A stretch of 64,000 nucleotides of DNA from Ruditapes philippinarum. Taxonomy: Eukaryota. Where the stretch lies: contig NW_026855289.1 of assembly GCF_026571515.1 (NCBI RefSeq), positions 62,001-126,000 on the forward strand, in the 5' to 3' direction. The translations under genes and the position numbers were made by a program. Position 1 is the first letter of the stretch, and each line of letters starts with the position of its first letter. The notes beneath the pieces were generated by a model. The model did not search any database and had not been told where the DNA came from. It saw only the letters and a program-made list of their open reading frames with translations. Shown one piece after another: positions 764 through 61,005 of this stretch.

Positions 764-18057
<17,294 letters not shown>

Positions 18058-24581: not shown

Positions 24582-25400
24582 CTATTTCTCTTTCTTTTTG
24601 CTATCAGCGTGTAAAGCAGTACTTACAGTAAAGCAAAACATATTCACAAAATGCACCTGTCCGATATCACACAGTTTTGAAATCAAATGACCGGAAATGT
24701 ATTTAAAAATTTCATGATATTTTACAAGCTCAAGATCAAGTAACTTTAACACTACAAATCCTGCACAGCTGAGCAAAGCACCAATGAAGGAGTTTCTACA
24801 TTTAGCCTGTGGAACTTTCTTCCAAGCAAGGACAGCCCCGCCAATTGCAAAACATATGTGTACACCAAGGCTGATTTCAAATCCGTGTTTATCGTACAGA
24901 GATAGAAAATAACTTCCAATCGAAGCAGCTATAAATGTTACGTTCCAAACTGTGCTCCATCTGCTAACTGTATTCATCCCCCATAGGAATACCAGCATGA
25001 AGAATGGCAGAGTATACCACTGGTCAAGAATGGCAAATCCCTTCAGCTGGGTCACAATTCTTAATGTCTGAATGGGTCCATAGCAACAAGCTGCGACATT
25101 GAAGATATAGAATAAAAGAGCGTCAGATTTACGTATTGTGTTTTCTGTCAGTGCAATGGTAGTGGCTGCGCACCAAGCCGCTCCGACAAACACATAGCCT
25201 AAATTAACTACGGAATTAAACGGCATCTTAATCCACCTGGGTAAGAATCCTTTCATTGAAATATGGACTCTCTCAGCATAATGCTGAACTCCTATCTCTG
25301 CTGTAGCACCATCAAGACATCCTATGTATACAACGTAACTCATAAGCCCTGTGACTGACAAAACCAGCAGCAATGACTTCACCATAATCCCTGGCAGCAT
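24582..25400 (-). CDS. TMEM187: Transmembrane protein 187, single coding exon, 272 aa
   Basis: Multi-pass hydrophobic ORF with family motifs HYAE, MPFNSxVNxxY, YGPxQxLR, LDQWxTLP, GFVVLKLxD and GHxxSKxCD. Splice acceptor TTATTTGCAG lies 24 nt upstream of the ATG (25425..25426), implying a non-coding first exon. Confidence 0.92.
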   Translation of the reverse strand: MLPGIMVKSLLLVLSVTGLMSYVVYIGCLDGATAEIGVQHYAERVHISMKGFLPRWIKMPFNSVVNLGYVFVGAAWCAATTIALTENTIRKSDALLFYIFNVAACCYGPIQTLRIVTQLKGFAILDQWYTLPFFMLVFLWGMNTVSRWSTVWNVTFIAASIGSYFLSLYDKHGFEISLGVHICFAIGGAVLAWKKVPQAKCRNSFIGALLSCAGFVVLKLLDLELVKYHEIFKYISGHLISKLCDIGQVHFVNMFCFTVSTALHADSKKKEK

Positions 25401-25961
25401 TTTGTTTAATTATTGATATCCACACTGCAAATAAAGTAAATTATTTTGTCAATACAATTCTTTTTTAAAGAAATGACAAATAAATGGAAAAAAGACATTA
25501 AAAGTTTACAGTCCAATACAGTCACAGGAACTTGAAATTTTATGACAGAATATTTTTTATACAGCACAAGGGCTATTTTGGATATCTTTATCAGCTTATA
25601 AATTATAAGTTTGTGTCATAGAAATCAACTACATTAAGGACGTTTTCGGGAGTTTTTATATAGACTTATTGGCAAAATTAAAACTGTTTGATAACAGAAA
25701 CATTTTCAGCGAAAGAAAAATTGGGGTCACAATTCTCATTTTCGAGTTATCTGCCCTTAAATGCAAAATTTCAAGAACAAATTTAGAGTGGATAGTTTTT
25801 TTTCCTACATCTTCTCTTAACTTGTGCATTTTTTTCTTAAAAATTGGCCTATTTTTTCATGAATTTAAAGTTCCTTCATTTTCATTGAAAATAATTAACG
25901 GAACTGCATGTAATTATGTATATTTATTCAACAAGAAAAAGAAAAACATTATCCAGAAGTA

Positions 25962-32300: not shown

Positions 32301-35090
32301 TTATAAAGAAACTGTTTAGCCTCGAACATTAATACTATACCCAGACAGGCTGATTCTTTATTGCGCAGTATTTAATACAGTAGATTAAGATTAATTTCCA
32401 CAGAAATGTCATGCTACAGAAATCTATAACATACTGTTGTAATTTGTAATAGTGAACAATAAATCAATATTTTATATATCAGCAATATTAAAAGAGCATT
32501 TGATTGATTTCAAAGGTGAAAGCTTTATTAATAGATTTAAACTACAATTATATGGCTTATACTAGGTTATGCATGACTTCTCCCTAGATTTGACAAATTC
32601 TCCCTATTTATTTTGTAGGGAGTAGTCATTACTCTTTTAAATGACAATATCAATTTAGTCAATGGAACTTTGTTAGTCTTGTTAGTTGAATTGTTTTACA
32701 AATAATTGACTTGAAACATATGAAAATATTGTTTTTAAATAATTTTTATTTGCAATTGCTTGATTTCATTATGAAATTATGGAAAATATTCCAACAAACA
32801 AGAGATTTGATTTCATTGAAAAAGTATTGAAATTTATCCAAGAATAACATTTTCAGAAATACATATGAATTTTACTTTATCTTACCAGTAAGACTCTCAT
32901 AAGCTACGGCCGAAAAAGTCCCCTTGTGTCTGTTTTTAAATAATAACTGCAAAAAGTGCTAAATTAAGGATTTTCATTTTTTCCCATGTACGTCTTTATA
33001 TAATGTTTAAACATTGGTATAGAATGTCATAGACAAGTTTTCTTAGACATATGTTTAAAGTGTCACAGACTAATTTTCTCAGGGCATGATTGACTTGATA
33101 AATTAGCATTTAATTCCCATAGTAGCTATTGGACATTCACTGGAATCTCAGAAATCCTTGATTAAAATAATACCAGCAATATTCTGGTCAATATTTAGAT
33201 TCCTGTGTCAACATTGGTATCAAATATTGACAATTGCGACATGGGCGTGTTTGCTGGGACGAGGTAGTCATTGATTTATTCATTGTAAATGATCGAACAA
33301 TATTATAAATACGGTGTGTAGTTTATAAAGACAATTGATTTCCTGATTTGATCATTTCCTGTATGGGTTCTTTAACAATGGATTTTATCAACGTCTTGAA
33401 TGGATCCTGGTCATGAATTTTGTTAAATTAAAAAAAAAGAAGAAACATAGTCAAAGCCAAATTATGAATTTTTGGAAGTGTTTTGGAATTTTTATACTCA
33501 AATTTGAGGGAAAATGAATATTTTGTTGTGTTTGATTCATTTTCTGTTATGAATTCAACATTAAACAAACACACCCATATGATTTCCTAGACTTTGTTGT
33601 TCATTAAAGTAGTATCAAATGATTTATGTCTATAAAATTAGCATATTGTTGTTGTTGTTTTTTTAATTGGTTGTGCATTGTTTGTACACATTTTTTTGTA
33701 TAACCTTTGTTTTCTCTTTTTTCTCCAGGAATTTATCTGCTATCCAAGATAGAGAAATTTGCTGCTATTCAATATCATGCAAAGAAAAAGAAAATATAGG
33801 TCAGTATAAAATATGGGAAGTGCCTGCTCAGATTTCCCCTCTAGAATCAACACAATATTAAATTATAAAGAAAAAGAGACGCTTCCTGCCACTCCTGATT
33901 TGTAAAATGGCCTTGCCCTGCTTTGAATTTGGAACTGTCCATTGTTATTTTAGGTGATTTTGGTATCAGAATGCTAAAACAAGTGCAGCCAGTAATGTTA
34001 TAATTGAGCTGTGCCATCACAAAACCAACATAGATTGTTTGGGACCAGCATGGATCCAGATCAGCCTGCGCATCCACACAGTCTGATCAGGATCCATGCT
34101 GGTCGCAAACGCACTATGTTGGTTTGTCATGGCTCGTCTCAATTATTATGTCTGGTCACATTACACAGAATTGCAGACTGGCCAGGACATATACTGGTTG
34201 CATAGGTACATGTATATCATTAAGGTCAAAGTTGTTCAGACGGTTACCAACTACATGTATGGTTCAAGATATTAGATCTGAGAATTCAAAATAGCTCTGT
34301 GTATATTTGGATTCCAGTGTCATTTTGTAATCAAATATAAACAAATTGACAAGGGCATTTTTGCTATGACAAAGCAGCCATTGATTCAAATTATCCATTA
34401 TAAATGATTGAACATAGTCTAATGTCTGTTTTTCAATACTTTCCCAGCTAGCCATTGTTTTAGATCAGTGTATTAAATTAGCCATATAAATAATAGTATG
34501 TATGTATGTCTCAGGTAAATAAAAGGTAAATTTTCTTCATTTATCCCTGAACTAAATTACTTGTTAAAACTGAAAGTATTCAGCATTTGCTACCAGTCAG
34601 GCTAGCCTACAAATCAGGCTCTATACTGTTGGTAGCTATATTTTGATAAATCAAATCAATTACTTAAATCAGTAGGTTAAAAGCTAATTACAGTTTAATT
34701 AGTGAAATTACTATTACAGTTCACTTAGTGAAATTACTATTACAGTTCACTAAGTCAATTTACTATAACAGTTCACTTAGTTAAATTACTCTTACAGCTC
34801 ACTTTGTTAAATTACTCTTACAGTTCACTTAGTGAAATTACAATTTCAATTCACTTGGCGAAATTACAATTACAGTTCACTCTGTGAAATTACTATTACA
34901 CTTCAGAATGTAATTGTTAAAATTTAATGTAATACAGTAACACTAATAAATATGACAAAGTACGACATTTGCTCTAGAACACTTGTTGAATATTTGTGAA
35001 TGTAATAAACCTACTCAAAATATAATTCACTATTCCTCCATTTCAGACATCACATTACAGTGGTTGATACAGCATTCCAAAGGTCATTAA
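29354..35090 (+). CDS. ARL8: ADP-ribosylation factor-like protein 8 (lysosomal small GTPase); join(29354..29476,30312..30392,31011..31084,31480..31641,33729..33799,35047..35090), 184 aa
   Basis: [41 protein letters not shown]|[27 protein letters not shown]|[25 protein letters not shown]|[54 protein letters not shown]|[24 protein letters not shown]|[13 protein letters not shown]. 555 nt, all GT-AG in phase. Confidence 0.97.
30420..30640 (+). repeat. 18-bp minisatellite (GGTAGATTATCTCATTnn)
   Basis: GGTAGA at 30493, 30511, 30529; about 12 units starting ~30 nt after the ARL8 exon 2 donor. Confidence 0.9.
31255..31479 (+). repeat. ~21-bp minisatellite (GTGTTGTTTATATTGAAACAG) ending in the ARL8 exon 4 acceptor
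   Basis: Units start at 31419, 31440 and 31461, with degenerate ones upstream. The AG of the last unit (31478..31479) is the in-frame acceptor. Confidence 0.9.
34006..34140. mobile_element. Palindromic MITE, Sola-like, internally deleted copy 2
   Basis: GAGCTGTGCCATCACAAAACCAACATAG...ATGTTGGTTTGTCATGGCTCGTCTC, flanked by AATT/AATT. Confidence 0.8.
34695..34905 (+). repeat. 26-bp minisatellite (TTAGTGAAATTACTATTACAGTTCAC)
   Basis: AGTGAAATTA at 34701, 34727 and onward; about 8 units in ARL8 intron 5. Confidence 0.9.
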
Positions 35091-45085: not shown

Positions 45086-45090
45086 TTGTA

Positions 45091-46285
45091 TTTTTGTATT
45101 TTCTGATCGTAAGATCAGTAAATACATAGCTAACATCCACGGTCTAACACAAAATTTCCTCACAGTCCTAACAACGCAAAGTAGTTCTCACTCAAAATTG
45201 CTTAAAAACCAGCAATTTAAAAGAAAGAATAATTTTTAATGTAGGCATTTAACGAATTACAGTGCATTAAAAGTTTAGATTAGTCAACAGAAATATCAGG
45301 TTACAATCACAAATTTCGCGGATGAATATCTTTTTTACCCAATGAAAAATGTTCGGCTATTTCCGTAAAGCTTCGGATTATCATGAATATCATTTTAATC
45401 AATGAAAATGCTATTTTAAGCTATGTCGATTACCGAATACTCCAGAGCGTAGTACACTGTCAAGTAGTGTAATATATACATTTATCACACACCCGTGCCG
45501 ATTTTGCGGCTCCGTAAAAATGGTATTGCACGGCCGTGCATATATTTTGACGTGACGTCATTAGCGTTATACAAACATAGTGTAAAGACGCGCTAAATGT
45601 TAGCGTTATACTATAGGCGCGTCAATGAAAAATGACTCTTATTTCACTTTAAACGGTATTTATTTTGGGTATGTGATAAATAGAATATTAAATTCGTGTA
45701 AGTTCATTACTGAATTTATTGCACTCGTTGAATAAAATAATATTATGCTCGCCAGAGGCTCGCATAATATAATTTTATTCAACTCGTGCAATAAATTCAG
45801 TATTGAACTTACACTCATTCAATATCCTCTATTTTGTACATGCCGGACTGTTTTGGCGAGAAGATTTTCGCTAAATTATTTTCATCAGTGGTTAACAACA
45901 GGTTTATCGTGAACAAAATACCTCGAAATTAATAAGGATTACAAACACGAAATGGAAATTCTCAATTTAGAATATCATAATGTATTCGTTTTAATTCAAG
46001 GTACATATGTATTACTTCGCCATGGTGCAGAGGTAAGCGGTCTTGTTGAGGGTGTGAGAGGCCTATGGTTCAAATCCTAGTCGAGGCAATTCTATTTTTT
46101 TTTTCATGCAAAATTCCATATGTATCAATCTCAAACTGTTATAGAAGAAAATCAAAACGCTGTCGCTGCGTAAGATGAATTATAGTATATAAAAATAAAC
46201 TTATACAGGAAAGTACATACAGATAGTCAGTATGATTTAGATTGCAAAAATCAGAAAATACCTTAGAGCTGCAGCCCTTTGATTT
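45091..46285 (+). mobile_element. Diverged copy of the interior of the 12683..14484 element, including its tRNA-like unit (~46016..46103)
   Basis: Colinear matches TGTATTTTCTGATCG, GATTTTCGCTAAA, CTCGAAATTAATAAGGATTACAAAC, GATTTAGATTGCAAA-ATCAGAAAATACC and GCAGCCCTTTGATT. Confidence 0.8.
45481..45832 (-). mobile_element. Short (352-bp) form of the palindrome-ended Crypton-like element, nested in the homologous interior copy
   Basis: TTTATCACACACCC...GGGTATGTGATAAA IR followed by a ~150-bp palindrome ending CAATATCCTCTAT. The empty site corresponds to AATATATAGATTCTACATG at ~13512..13530. Confidence 0.8.
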
Positions 46286-47085
46286 CTAAATGTTTTCGTT
46301 TCTTTTTATCAGAGAACGTTAGTGAAATGTTAACAGTAATGTTGACTTAACGATAGAGAACTACTTTTTATCTGTTATCATACATGTATGAATATCTGGG
46401 TTAACTGGAGCATAATAAAGATGAAGCTTTTTCTTCTGTTTATGACAACGCATAAATTGACGTATGTGTCAACCTACGCGAGAAACTAAAATACCGGAAG
46501 TCGACAAAGGAAGCACCAATGAGTAATGTACATGTAGGTAAAACTAGGTTGCTACAGTTTGCAATAGAAATTAAACTCGTGTCGATGAGTTATTACAGTT
46601 TTGTGAAAAACAGTTTGAACGTTGATCACAATTGGCTACTTTCATCCCCAAAACCGCGTTCAATTTATTACAGTTTGGTGCAATGTGCACCTTTTCTAGC
46701 ATAAGTCCTTTATCATAAAATCCGCGTTACCTTTATTACATTTTTTTGCAATAATCATGCTATAAATGTACCCAGAACTTTAAAACACGCCATGGACACT
46801 TATGAACAGTACAAAAGTGAAGAAGAAAAACATATAATATCCTTTTTATCTCCTTTACTTAATTTTGGAAACTTCCGTGTTTAATTTAAATAGGAATCGC
46901 TGGTCACGTGATATAATCTGATATGATAGCCTGTGCGTTCCTTATTAGCAGCGCTTTCCTCGAATCCGGCTGAATTACATTCGTGGAATGTCATGTGAAC
47001 CAGACCATTTTGAAATACAATAAAATTACATGTTCTGATTTTTTTAAGGAGGAAGTCATCTGAAGAAGAATAAGGAAAAGTAAAA

Positions 47086-50000
47086 ATGGGTAATTATTTA
47101 TTTTATTAATTATCATTTAAGAATCTATTGTATTTCAAATTTTTAACTGTTCAATTTATATGTTTAAAGTCACGTACCGTTTGTTCAAACTTTGAAATTT
47201 ATGTTATATATATTTAGTATGAAAGAATTTGGAATTTTGCAAGAATCTATGGTATTTGAAATACCTTATCGATTATCCAAAGCTGTTAATCACGTGACTT
47301 ATTGATTTACTCTCACGTTATCGGGCTATCATATTTATTTGAGCCGCGTCACGACAAAACCAACATAATGGGTTTGTAACCAGCATGGATCCAGACCAGC
47401 CTGCGTTCGCTGTCAGTTTCTCTATTTGTTATAGGGTTTGTAAGCGAACAGCATGAGTCCTGATCAGACTGCGCAGATGCGCTGGCTGGTCTGGATCCAT
47501 GCTGGTCGCAAACGCGTTATGTTGGTTTTGTCGTGACGCAGCTCATTTTATTGTAGTTTGTTAATTTCCTGTCGAGGTCAGGTGAAATAACTGTTCAATA
47601 AATAGAATTGTGTCACGGTCACGTTTAAGAACAACAAAAAATGGAATGTTATAATCTTCGTATTGAAAACAGTTTTATATTGAAACTTGACAGTAGGGTT
47701 TTCATAGTAAATACATGTATATCGAAATTAGGACTCCAATGTTTTACAGGCTGCTGTATTCTTGTTTTGAAATAAAATATTTGATTACTGTATTTGATAG
47801 GTCAAGACTCTTGCGATATAAATGAAAAAAATCGTGCCATTTAGATAGAGTATGTCTCTGAAACTTCCTTTTTAGCTCGACTATTCAAAGATAGTTGTCC
47901 TTCCCTTCTCAACTGTGTGTCGTCGTTTGCGTCCGCTTAAAATTCACGTGCAACGTTTTTACGATTTTATTATCTCGTCAGCCAAGAAAATCGTTTCATG
48001 TATTTGAAATCATAATTGGAGGTGACTTTCCAAGATTCATAACTCCGGCATGTATTACTTTTTTTGAAAAATTTTGGTTAAAGTTTTGCATTTAACATAT
48101 TATGACTTTTGTACCAATATTGGAGGGCACATGCAAGACATATTCAACATTAATCTTCAATGCTACTGAAGGTACCCATTTGAAACCTCATACATGTCTT
48201 CAGGATCATAATTGAAGGTCACTGTCCAAGGCCCATAACTCTTGACATGGATTTTAAATAATAATAAAAAAAATAACCCTTTGTGAGCTTACAAAATGTT
48301 TGCCCATTTTCTAAGACTCATAACTATAACATATCGTCACCTTAGTGCAGTAACGGAATAAGTTCTTCTAAATTTAATAGGAGTTAATCAGTTGTTGCGC
48401 TAAGGTGACTTGAAAGTTATATTCCTTTTTGTTAATTTCTGCTCTTGTTTTATTTTGTCATTAGATGTGTTCACTGAATGCCGCACTTCCTTGTTGATCT
48501 TTACAATTGGTTTCATATTTTTCTTTGAATCACTCGTAGTACTTAGTTACGGAATGCCGTTAGGGCCATTGCCTATGAATGTGTTGATCTGAAACGCGAT
48601 AGTCGATAGTACGATGGTGAAAACGCGAAATCACGAAACTACGATGGTGAAAATGCGAAAGCACGATGATGAAAACGCGAAAGTACGATGATGAAAACGC
48701 GACAGTACGATACTACGATGATGAAAGCGCGATAAACTATCGTGTTTTCACCATCGTACTGTCGCGTTTTCACCATCGTAATTTCGTGATTTCGCGTTTT
48801 CATCATCGTACTGTCGTGTTTTCATCATCGTACTATCGCGTTTTCACCATCGTACTATCGCGTTTTCACCATCGTACTATCGCGTTTTCATCATCGTACT
48901 GTCGTGTTTTCATCATCGTACTATCGCGTTTTCACCATCGTACTGTCGTGATTTCATCATCGTACTATCGCGTTTTCATCATCGTACTATCGCGTTTTCA
49001 CCATCGTAGTTTCGGGATTTCGTGTTTTCACCATCGTACTATCGACTATCGCGTTTCAGATTTACACATTCATAGGCGATGGCCCTAACGGCATTCCGGA
49101 ATGCCGTTAGGGCCATCGCCTATGAATGGTTTGATCTGAAACGCGATACTCGACAGTACGATGATGAAAACGCGAAATCACGAAACTACGATGGTGAAAA
49201 CGCGACAGTACGATGGTGAAAACACGATAGTTTATCGCGCTTTCATCATCGTAGTATCGTACTGTCGCGATTTCATCATCGTACTATCGCGTTTTCATCA
49301 TCGTGCTTTCGCGTTTTCACCATCGTAGTTTCGTGATTTCGCGTTTTCACCATCGTACTATCGACTATCGCGTTTTAGATCAACACATTCATAGGCGATG
49401 GCCCTAACGGCATTCCGTACTTAGTCGACGGTCATGTTTATTCTCTAAGCTTGATGGTTGATTATTGTGTGTTCGCCTTTTCGCTTCTCGGAGCGAAAGT
49501 ACGACAAAATGTTGACTGCGTCATATTTTCGTAATTTTTGCATTTTTGTCCAGCGCAGCGAAAGTACGAAAAAATGTTGGCCCTGTAGAGCAAAAAAAAT
49601 CGTCAGGGCACAAATCAGTACCGTACTAAGGAAATATCCTATTAAAGTTAGTTATTTATTTCAAGGGTATATATCATATTATAAAGTATGTATATTGAGG
49701 AAGTAGAAAAGGGAATATTTTTTGTCTAAATAACTTTAATTTCAAATGCAAACAAAGTCGCTTCTTAAATTTCCTTCAAAACTTTATAAGTACTTCTTTG
49801 TCTGTTTTTTTTTTGTTAATTTTGCGTATTTGAAGCTATTTACCGCTATTTGAAAATGTAATGTCAAAGATTATATATAAAATTTCAATTCTTTTGAATA
49901 ACAATGACTTGTATTTAAGTCCATGAAAAGTATGGCACATGACGTGCTTTTTCCAAATAGTTTTTGTCACATCCGTATTTAATTTTATATCAAAACACAC

Positions 50001-60433: not shown

Positions 60434-61005
60434 ATGGGTATGTTTATATTTTATATATGAGCCGCGTCACGGCAAAACAAACATAATGGGTTTGCGATAG
60501 CATGGATCCAGACCAGCCTGCGCATCCGCGCAGTCTGATCAGAATCCATGCTGTTCGCTTACATACCCTATATCAAGTAGAGAAACTGAAAGCGAACAGC
60601 ATGGATCCTGATCAGACTGCGCGGACGCGCAGGCTGGTCTGGATCCATGCTGGTCGCAAACCCATTATGTTTGTTTTGTCGTCACGCGGCTCATATATTT
60701 GTTCAGTAAACTTAATAAAAAGGTAAACCTATTGGAATAAATACACGAATTTTGTAAAGAAATCATAGGCTAAAAATATAAGAATACATGTATGCATTTG
60801 TAACTCAAAAATAAATCGATTTTCATTCCTTCAAACTTTTTGTTTATTTATTTATTTATTTCTGAGGATAATCGAGCATTAACTGTCGATATTAAAGCGT
60901 GTGCATTTTGTACATTTATTTCAGTTTTTCGGAAACAGCAGCAGTATAGCTGGAAAGACTCGAACTTAGCACAGTTCGGATCGGACACTGAGAGACTGGT
61001 GAAAA
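60434..61005 (+). CDS. Second gelsolin-like paralogue, 5' part only; join(60434..60437,60925..61005); continues beyond the window or is a relic
   Basis: ATGG|GTATGT micro coding exon and an 81-nt exon give MVFRKQQQYSWKDSNLAQFGSDTERLVK, the same sizes and phases as the first gene. No further exons were seen before 64000. Confidence 0.8.
60459..60692. mobile_element. Palindromic MITE, Sola-like, copy 4
   Basis: GAGCCGCGTCACGGCAAAAC...GTTTTGTCGTCACGCGGCTC, flanked by ATAT/ATAT. Confidence 0.9.

Follow-up and report, generated by a model that had tools for sequence, protein, structure and literature searches.

A GA/GA-mismatched terminal hairpin in a non-autonomous CryptonA element of Ruditapes philippinarum, likely part of a folded single-stranded recombination site

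INTRODUCTION

Animal Cryptons have been reported without terminal repeats (Kojima and Jurka 2011, PMC3212892). As far as the available text of that study goes, the animal CryptonA elements resemble the one analyzed here in their single DUF3504 tyrosine recombinase gene with a full catalytic set, in their abundant non-autonomous copies, and in having relatives in molluscs and cnidarians, whereas the present element stands out by its asymmetric inverted repeat, by tandem GA/GA mismatches in a long terminal hairpin, and by a defined target consensus. The Glomhopper CryptonA elements of fungi (PMC13465315, 2026) share the DUF3504 recombinase; the available text of that paper resolves no boundaries or repeats, and its main text is without the terms "hairpin", "palindrom" and "single-strand". 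CryptonF follows a short-repeat model, yet its copy number rises (PMC9977147).

In integron attC/IntI and CTX phage attP recombination (PMC3458562), a tyrosine recombinase (YR) acts on a folded single strand that is chosen by its unpaired features, and attC/IntI recombination uses one exchange with replicative resolution. Both properties are proposed here for an element that differs from attC in being eukaryotic, in encoding its own enzyme, in being marked by tandem GA/GA and a 2-nt bulge, and in using degenerate genomic targets. In DIRS-1 (PMC7192593), an internal complementary region that repeats the joined ends acts as the splint of a single-stranded YR intermediate, and insertion occurs into resident copies; the present element would be alike in both respects, but it lacks a reverse transcriptase and an ITR pair, and its splint of about 18 nt is the base of the terminal hairpin. 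Helitron2 (PMC3627910) also has asymmetric inverted repeats, a terminal hairpin, no target duplication, and a gene in either orientation, but it relies on an HUH RepHel enzyme instead of a YR and its hairpin is short, that of the present element being five times longer; a GA/GA rule is not mentioned in the available text. The SE elements of Vibrio (PMC9345347) are YR elements that circularize one specific strand (copy-out), as is proposed for the present element, but they contain four genes and carry along a 6-bp coupling sequence, and no terminal hairpin is mentioned in the text available for them.

Our literature search, which had supplements and Repbase outside its scope, gave no paper on GA-mismatched Crypton hairpins or on a single-strand model. 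The bare hairpin may already have been noted in Repbase or in a transposon-structure review; what we did not find in print is the end design and likely mechanism presented here for a known transposon family. To our knowledge, it has never been shown how animal Cryptons move, their ends having been reported as featureless, and we know of no animal DNA transposon for which folded-single-strand recombination has been shown.

RESULTS

A young 351-bp element with sharp ends

The window, i.e., the whole stretch of DNA that was analyzed, is 64,000 nucleotides long and originates from contig NW_026855289.1 of R. philippinarum. A search of the 1.41-Gb genome with window positions 45480-45840 returned 1278 candidate places, and all 40 copies that were scored were 98-100% identical (40/40). 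As 30 aligned copies run from TTATCAC to CTCTAT and have unrelated flanks, the unit is a sharply delimited element of 351 bp (45482..45832, + strand in the orientation of the gene of its partner, see below), a whole non-autonomous CryptonA element, and it is young. It begins with the terminal arm of an asymmetric inverted repeat (45482..45494, +), which is the 3' end of the GA strand in the predicted fold, followed by a non-coding body (45495..45666, +) that contains short internal palindromes and shares its first ~50 bp with the partner. The internal arm of the repeat (45667..45679, +) lies directly at the base of the terminal hairpin, and the two arms form a 13-bp TTATCAC/GTGATAA inverted repeat with one wobble. 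The element ends in an invariant CTCTAT (45827..45832, +), which would be its own spacer and the 5' end of the exchanged strand.

The terminal hairpin and its two strands

The initial annotation had described a terminal palindrome of ~150 bp with three TC/TC mismatches. The palindrome is real and the mismatches are where they had been placed, the exact span being 45680..45832 (153 nt), since base 45679 is the last base of the adjoining inverted repeat. At all three sites TC stands opposite TC on the plus strand and GA opposite GA on the minus strand, hereafter the GA strand, which also has a GG bulge and a TCT loop. The outer tandem (45694..45695, partner 45815-45816) has the context TGAG/CGAA and is Watson-Crick paired in one of six homologous hairpins, whereas the middle tandem (45725..45726, partner 45784-45785) and the loop-proximal tandem (45749..45750, partner 45760-45761) both have the context CGAG/CGAG, the latter being the position that is most widely kept across families. 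Not mentioned in the earlier description were single mismatches at 45707/45803 and 45739/45771, a 2-nt bulge at 45826-7, and A.C at two positions where the minus strand has T.G wobbles. Tandem G.A pairs follow a Py-GA-Pu context rule, and they form in RNA too. B-DNA stays stable with two adjacent G.A pairs (PMC11014236).

Fold z-scores were -15.7 for the minus and -17.3 for the plus strand, and none of 200 shuffles reached either strand. It had been claimed that only one strand folds, but the energy model gives near-equal values, -51.9 versus -48.9 kcal/mol for the two hairpin strands and -79.1 versus -78.6 for the whole element. Separating the strands by nearest-neighbor energies was therefore rejected, and the term "strand-selective" has to refer to shape or recognition, not to folding. 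In the predicted fold of the minus strand, the 153-nt hairpin abuts directly on the 13-bp stem that closes the element body, so that the two element ends would meet on the internal splint.

GA/GA mismatches are kept while stems covary

The initial annotation had proposed a test of whether GA/GA positions resist conversion to Watson-Crick pairs while the stems covary, and they were found to do so. The six homologous hairpins show two-sided changes at 36 of 69 pairs, with 97.8% of cells pairing, and GA/GA is retained at 17 of 18 sites. None of 500 shuffles scored as high, a control that is inflated by the relatedness of the six hairpins. Within the young subfamily, the GA positions are not measurably more conserved (2/408 versus 46/4794), a comparison that is uninformative.

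To extend the comparison, 70 DUF3504 loci were scanned and 36 hairpins were picked by hand, of which three were set aside, leaving 33 in 17 families that are mostly 30-58% alike (68% for families A and B). The three are L057, which has no such loops, and L072 and L090, which show TC/TC and were read as neighboring elements in the other orientation, a reading that is clear for L090 and assumed for L072. Also left out were another MITE present in the window, (TA)n arrays, weak AT-rich folds, duplicates, and partial hairpins. The strand was assigned by position, as the one on which the hairpin precedes the gene region. With one representative per family, 23 of 32 two-by-two loops on this hairpin-first strand are GA/GA and none is TC/TC (0/32), and at least one GA/GA loop occurs in 15 of the 17 families. 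Single G.T mismatches outnumber A.C on the GA strand (15 versus 2). The pattern holds with the hairpin downstream (12 families) or upstream (5 families) of the gene, thus the GA strand tracks the element end and not the gene or its transcript.

An outside survey covered 83 metagenome loci, 42 of which had at least 760 nt downstream. These 42 comprise 20 loci with a GA-only hairpin, one mixed, three with a hairpin that has neither GA/GA nor TC/TC, and 18 without a hairpin. In the 24 loci with a hairpin, GA/GA accounts for 51 of 73 loops, all 51 in Py-GA-Pu context, and TC/TC for three, while the G.T bias is absent from the outside loci (A.C 18, G.T 14). The 760-nt cut-off dropped L166 and L172, which have TC/TC, and L180, which has four GA/GA. 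Over both surveys, TC/TC on the predicted strand was seen in L072, L090, L166 and L172, and in the inner parts of L182 and L218. On the GA strand, 9 of the 17 families and 11 of the 24 outside loci have terminal loops of the type C-GNA-G or C-GNNA-G; the loop of the focal family is TCT, not GNA. As RNA, GNA and GNNA mini-hairpin loops are far less stable than they are as DNA (PMC13037366).

Several individual loci showed further variation. In L182, L166 and L218, compared to L219/L235, the inner hairpin is flipped relative to the outer one (GA outside, TC inside), like flip-flop isomers. In L039, L050, L053 and L259, single GA/GA sites are Watson-Crick paired in some copies or in one family, as arm-to-arm conversion would give. 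Up to four GA/GA tandems are stacked in the outside loci L171, L180, L184, L193, L199 and L231, three of them at a spacing of two base pairs below a GNA loop.

The autonomous partner encodes a DUF3504 tyrosine recombinase

The initial annotation had suggested a Crypton-like tyrosine recombinase and a search for an autonomous element with the same ends, and such an element was found. Of 393 candidates for DUF3504 in the genome, 150 were scored and 149 of these matched. Two loci, L036 and L038, carry the ends of the 351-bp element, with 95% and 91% identity over the left 64 bp and 84% identity over the right ends of 177-179 bp, and one 351-bp copy is fused exactly onto the end of L036. L036 is 2.17 kb long and has one open reading frame of 488 aa, other frames being short and overlapping it on the same strand. 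The 488-aa product matches DUF3504 (1.9e-28) and Phage_integrase (1.9e-7), and L036 retains the catalytic R-K-H-R-H-Y set intact, as do 14 further rows of the 32 compared. A structural model of the protein (mean pLDDT 81.5) has a predicted Cre-like fold, matching QRICH1 and then Cre, and the fold search also finds the Tn1549 integrase. The homologs with names are proteins of bivalves, a gastropod, an octopus, corals, and an anemone, and there are five more near-complete relatives with 81-96% identity. Searches of viral contigs with the single recombinase protein and with an alignment gave no relative.

The complete partner contains neither a reverse transcriptase or RNase H nor a RepHel (HUH) gene. 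As its 2.17 kb has room for the recombinase gene only, the HUH mechanism that had been offered as an alternative is unneeded. A DUF3504 tyrosine recombinase as the sole gene, retention of R-H-R-Y, both ends shared with the non-autonomous copy, and no target-site duplication are the properties of CryptonA, and on the basis of DUF3504 and the names of the homologs we assign the partner to this group; the recombinase tree covers the proteins of this genome. RNA cover of the gene was low in two of three runs and alike in both directions, and therefore holds no strand information.

Also detected were L241, L242 and L243, animal-type Crypton loci inside bacterial genome bins, which are probably host DNA.

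Insertion footprint and target site

To avoid selecting for intact ends, copies were also collected by a search with the element body only. Among 39 such copies, the left end (45482..45494) is in register in all (39/39), 34 have CTCTAT or a one-letter variant at the right end, and five are interrupted; no shifted footprint class was seen among them. Paralogous empty sites were available for five of 30 copies and indicate precise insertion in four of the five, the paralogs being 74-93% alike. The flanks have a consensus, on the left A-10 (33/59), T-9 (35/59), A-8 (44/59) and T-1 (55/59), and on the right T+2 (75/82), A+3 (54/82) and T+4 (53/82). The target is thus a pseudo-palindromic, AT-rich ATAW-N6-WTAT, in which two ATA boxes in inverted orientation flank a spacer of 6 bp, and the element sits at one edge of this spacer. 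In family O (A and T 30/32 each) and family Q (14/18 and 15/18) the near box recurs; of the far box, O has a partial version with a spacing of 7 bp, and in Q it does not reach significance. A one-base match beside the cut is present in families A and B and absent in O and Q.

Tyrosine recombinases cleave each of the two strands at the spacer's 5' edge. On the minus (GA) strand, this edge is the one at which the insertions sit, so that footprint and structure independently indicate the same strand. The binding or crossover site had been predicted at the inverted repeat adjoining the hairpin, and the crossover indeed lies at the joint of this repeat and the hairpin base. The chemistry of these enzymes leaves a 3'-phosphotyrosine and a free 5'-OH (PMC3458562). 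A single footprint class fits one strand exchange, as it would fit strand-biased repair.

Frequent long flank duplications were considered and rejected, with counts of 0/53 (duplications of at least 11 nt), 1/25 (inside a tandem repeat) and 0/20. Direct repeats of 4-6 bp at both ends, as in the standard model for CryptonF/S, are not present. A DDE-type MITE was rejected as well, since one inverted-repeat arm lies 153 bp inside and there is no fixed duplication. The alternative of a DDE transposase binding CTCG direct repeats, named earlier as a refuting outcome, fails because there is no target duplication and because TGAG/CGAA serves as well as CGAG/CGAG.

The window copy itself is exceptional in that TACAT at 45477..45481 (+) is repeated at 45837-45841 behind a 4-bp filler, whereas the empty host copies have a single TACAT in 29 of 29 cases; TACAT plus filler is an atypical footprint of this copy. 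Among the joints shown for DNA contigs of four public runs, in which paralogs dominated, there was no empty allele of the window insertion.

Two more young non-autonomous families, of 335 bp (L327-L353) and about 382 bp (L360-L383), start with GT, which places the 2-nt bulge directly at the cut and not 6 nt further inside.

The internal splint and tandem copies

Exact head-to-tail junctions were found in 8/53, 0/25 and 3/20 copies of three copy sets. In head-to-tail copies of the 351-bp element the joint is CTCTAT|TTATCAC. Apart from the 2-nt bulge further in, its reverse complement recurs inside the element as the internal joint, GTGATAA|ATAGA, so that 45667..45679 plus 45680-45684 is complementary to the joined ends of the element. 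This is the relation known from DIRS. Some tandems join different subfamilies, which suggests insertion at resident ends and not rolling-circle overrun. Eight of 17 families have, at the hairpin base, a repeat of ~11-21 bp that corresponds to the far end and whose sequence differs per family, and such a repeat is also present in 11 of 17 outside loci tested, both counts being without a shuffle control; nine of the 17 families gave no clear match. Judged from these sequences, the family-specific inverted repeat at the hairpin base would let the GA strand hold its own two ends together.

A second copy and other features of the window

An older, truncated copy of a sister subfamily lies at 12683..12981 (-), with its hairpin at 12683-12835, its internal repeat at 12836-12848, and the far end lost. 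Its hairpin has the opposite orientation to the one at 45680-45832 and is 83% identical to it; the copy is decayed. The initial annotation had it keep two of the GA/GA sites fully and one partly. This is correct for the letters, which are GA at two sites and at half of the third, but not for the structure, since the flanking pairs of the middle site are broken (AGAG/TGAG) and it folds as a 3x3 loop.

The repeat that hosts the insertion, at 45086-46290 and 13190-14050, is another young repeat, with 1904 candidates for its right part. It contains a tRNA-like stretch, ARAGORN reporting a tRNA-Thr at 13699-13770, and both hairpin copies of the window are in or beside this tRNA-like host repeat. 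A separate palindromic MITE of ~200-250 bp occurs at 906-1104, 34021-34120, 47356-47523 and 60473-60671 and is common near many loci; used as a control, seven copies contained only two two-by-two loops, neither of them GA/GA, too few to weigh. Further features are arrays of a 175-bp repeat in inverted orientation (7069-11385 and 16571-17839) with arms up to 98% complementary, a 22-bp minisatellite arranged as a nested inverted repeat (48548-49419), and a 275-aa open frame (24582-25409, -) that matches TMEM187 (E 5.8e-59).

DISCUSSION

The hairpin is the terminal hairpin of a non-autonomous CryptonA element and, in our judgment, is likely to be part of a folded site that the tyrosine recombinase of the partner recombines on one strand, a substrate that we infer to be single-stranded. 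From the observed element, its ends and partner, the GA/GA design, the covarying repeat, and the footprint, we infer a mechanism of four steps. The GA strand would be exposed, at a replication fork or by extrusion, and fold into the hairpin plus the 13-bp stem, and the internal TCTAT-TTATCAC would pair with both ends, drawing them together. The recombinase would then exchange the GA strand alone and free a single-stranded circle with a duplex junction. This junction and an AT-rich ATAW-N6-WTAT target would recombine through a single strand exchange, placed at the spacer's 5' edge on the GA strand, and replication would copy the insertion, leaving no duplication. The sheared G.A tandems may serve to keep the GA strand a continuous helix, to mark this strand, and to prevent a perfect palindrome.

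The same element and enzyme might instead use an extruded cruciform, or a double-stranded circle with a mismatched spacer as in Tn916, with both strands exchanged and repair biased. Both strands are able to fold, a two-box target with a 6-bp spacer is the ordinary shape of a YR site, and the Tn1549 integrase appears in the fold search. We nevertheless consider this rather unlikely, since a two-strand exchange between unlike spacers should give two footprint classes or carried donor flank, whereas one class and an invariant CTCTAT are seen, a duplex circle would place the ATA box one base further out than the target consensus, and a GA and GNA design on only one strand would be left unexplained. 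In the published Crypton model, supported for CryptonF (PMC9977147; PMC3212892), a double-stranded circle is excised and inserted via short direct repeats, and the hairpin would have some accessory function, e.g., in protein binding, termination, or silencing. For the present element this is improbable: its termini share no direct repeat, as the base that follows the right end varies and the one that precedes the left end is not always T, and the splint repeat covaries with the far end.

A Helitron2/Helentron-type element that carries the recombinase gene as cargo and is mobilized by an HUH RepHel acting in trans would have the same outline of asymmetric inverted repeats, a terminal hairpin, no duplication, and T next to the ends (PMC3627910). 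However, the hairpins here measure 100-190 bp versus 20-30 bp, the target is a two-box pseudo-palindrome, and all long elements examined encode a YR with catalytic residues kept across deep lineages, although they were found by a YR search; we think it quite improbable. Least probable of all is that the hairpin works as RNA, in a regulatory step for instance or in one that is RNA-templated. RNA reads contain element ends in abundance, and Rfam gives one weak match to the element, a plant miRNA precursor, below the cut-off of that family. Against this, 97% of the placed reads continue into dissimilar sequence, a pattern that read-through of dispersed copies would produce. Relative to the gene, the GA strand is antisense in 12 families and sense in five; GNA triloops favor DNA, and the partner has no reverse transcriptase.

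Recombination of one folded strand thus remains the reading that we favor. Extended to the group, we hold with moderate confidence that animal CryptonA elements are single-strand DNA transposons, in which a YR peels off and pastes one folded strand that is marked by a structural code common to sequence-unrelated families across animal groups. This code would plausibly consist of tandem sheared G.A pairs, GNA mini-hairpin loops, and self-splinted ends. By analogy, these elements may well be a eukaryotic counterpart of integron and CTX recombination, mirroring the anatomy of Helitron2 with YR chemistry.

Since the ends are defined, a target consensus is available, strand and cut site are predicted, and there is an intact enzyme with young non-autonomous copies, the movement of animal Cryptons becomes directly testable. 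If the proposed mechanism is true, folded-single-strand tyrosine recombination, known from bacteria, also operates in animals, and would provide a compact, duplication-free insertion chemistry consisting of 351-bp ends plus one protein of ~490 aa. It would also give an annotation rule that separates such elements from Helitron2 look-alikes, and would suggest which DNA the ancestors of the domesticated DUF3504 proteins (ZMYM, QRICH1, KCTD1) bound.
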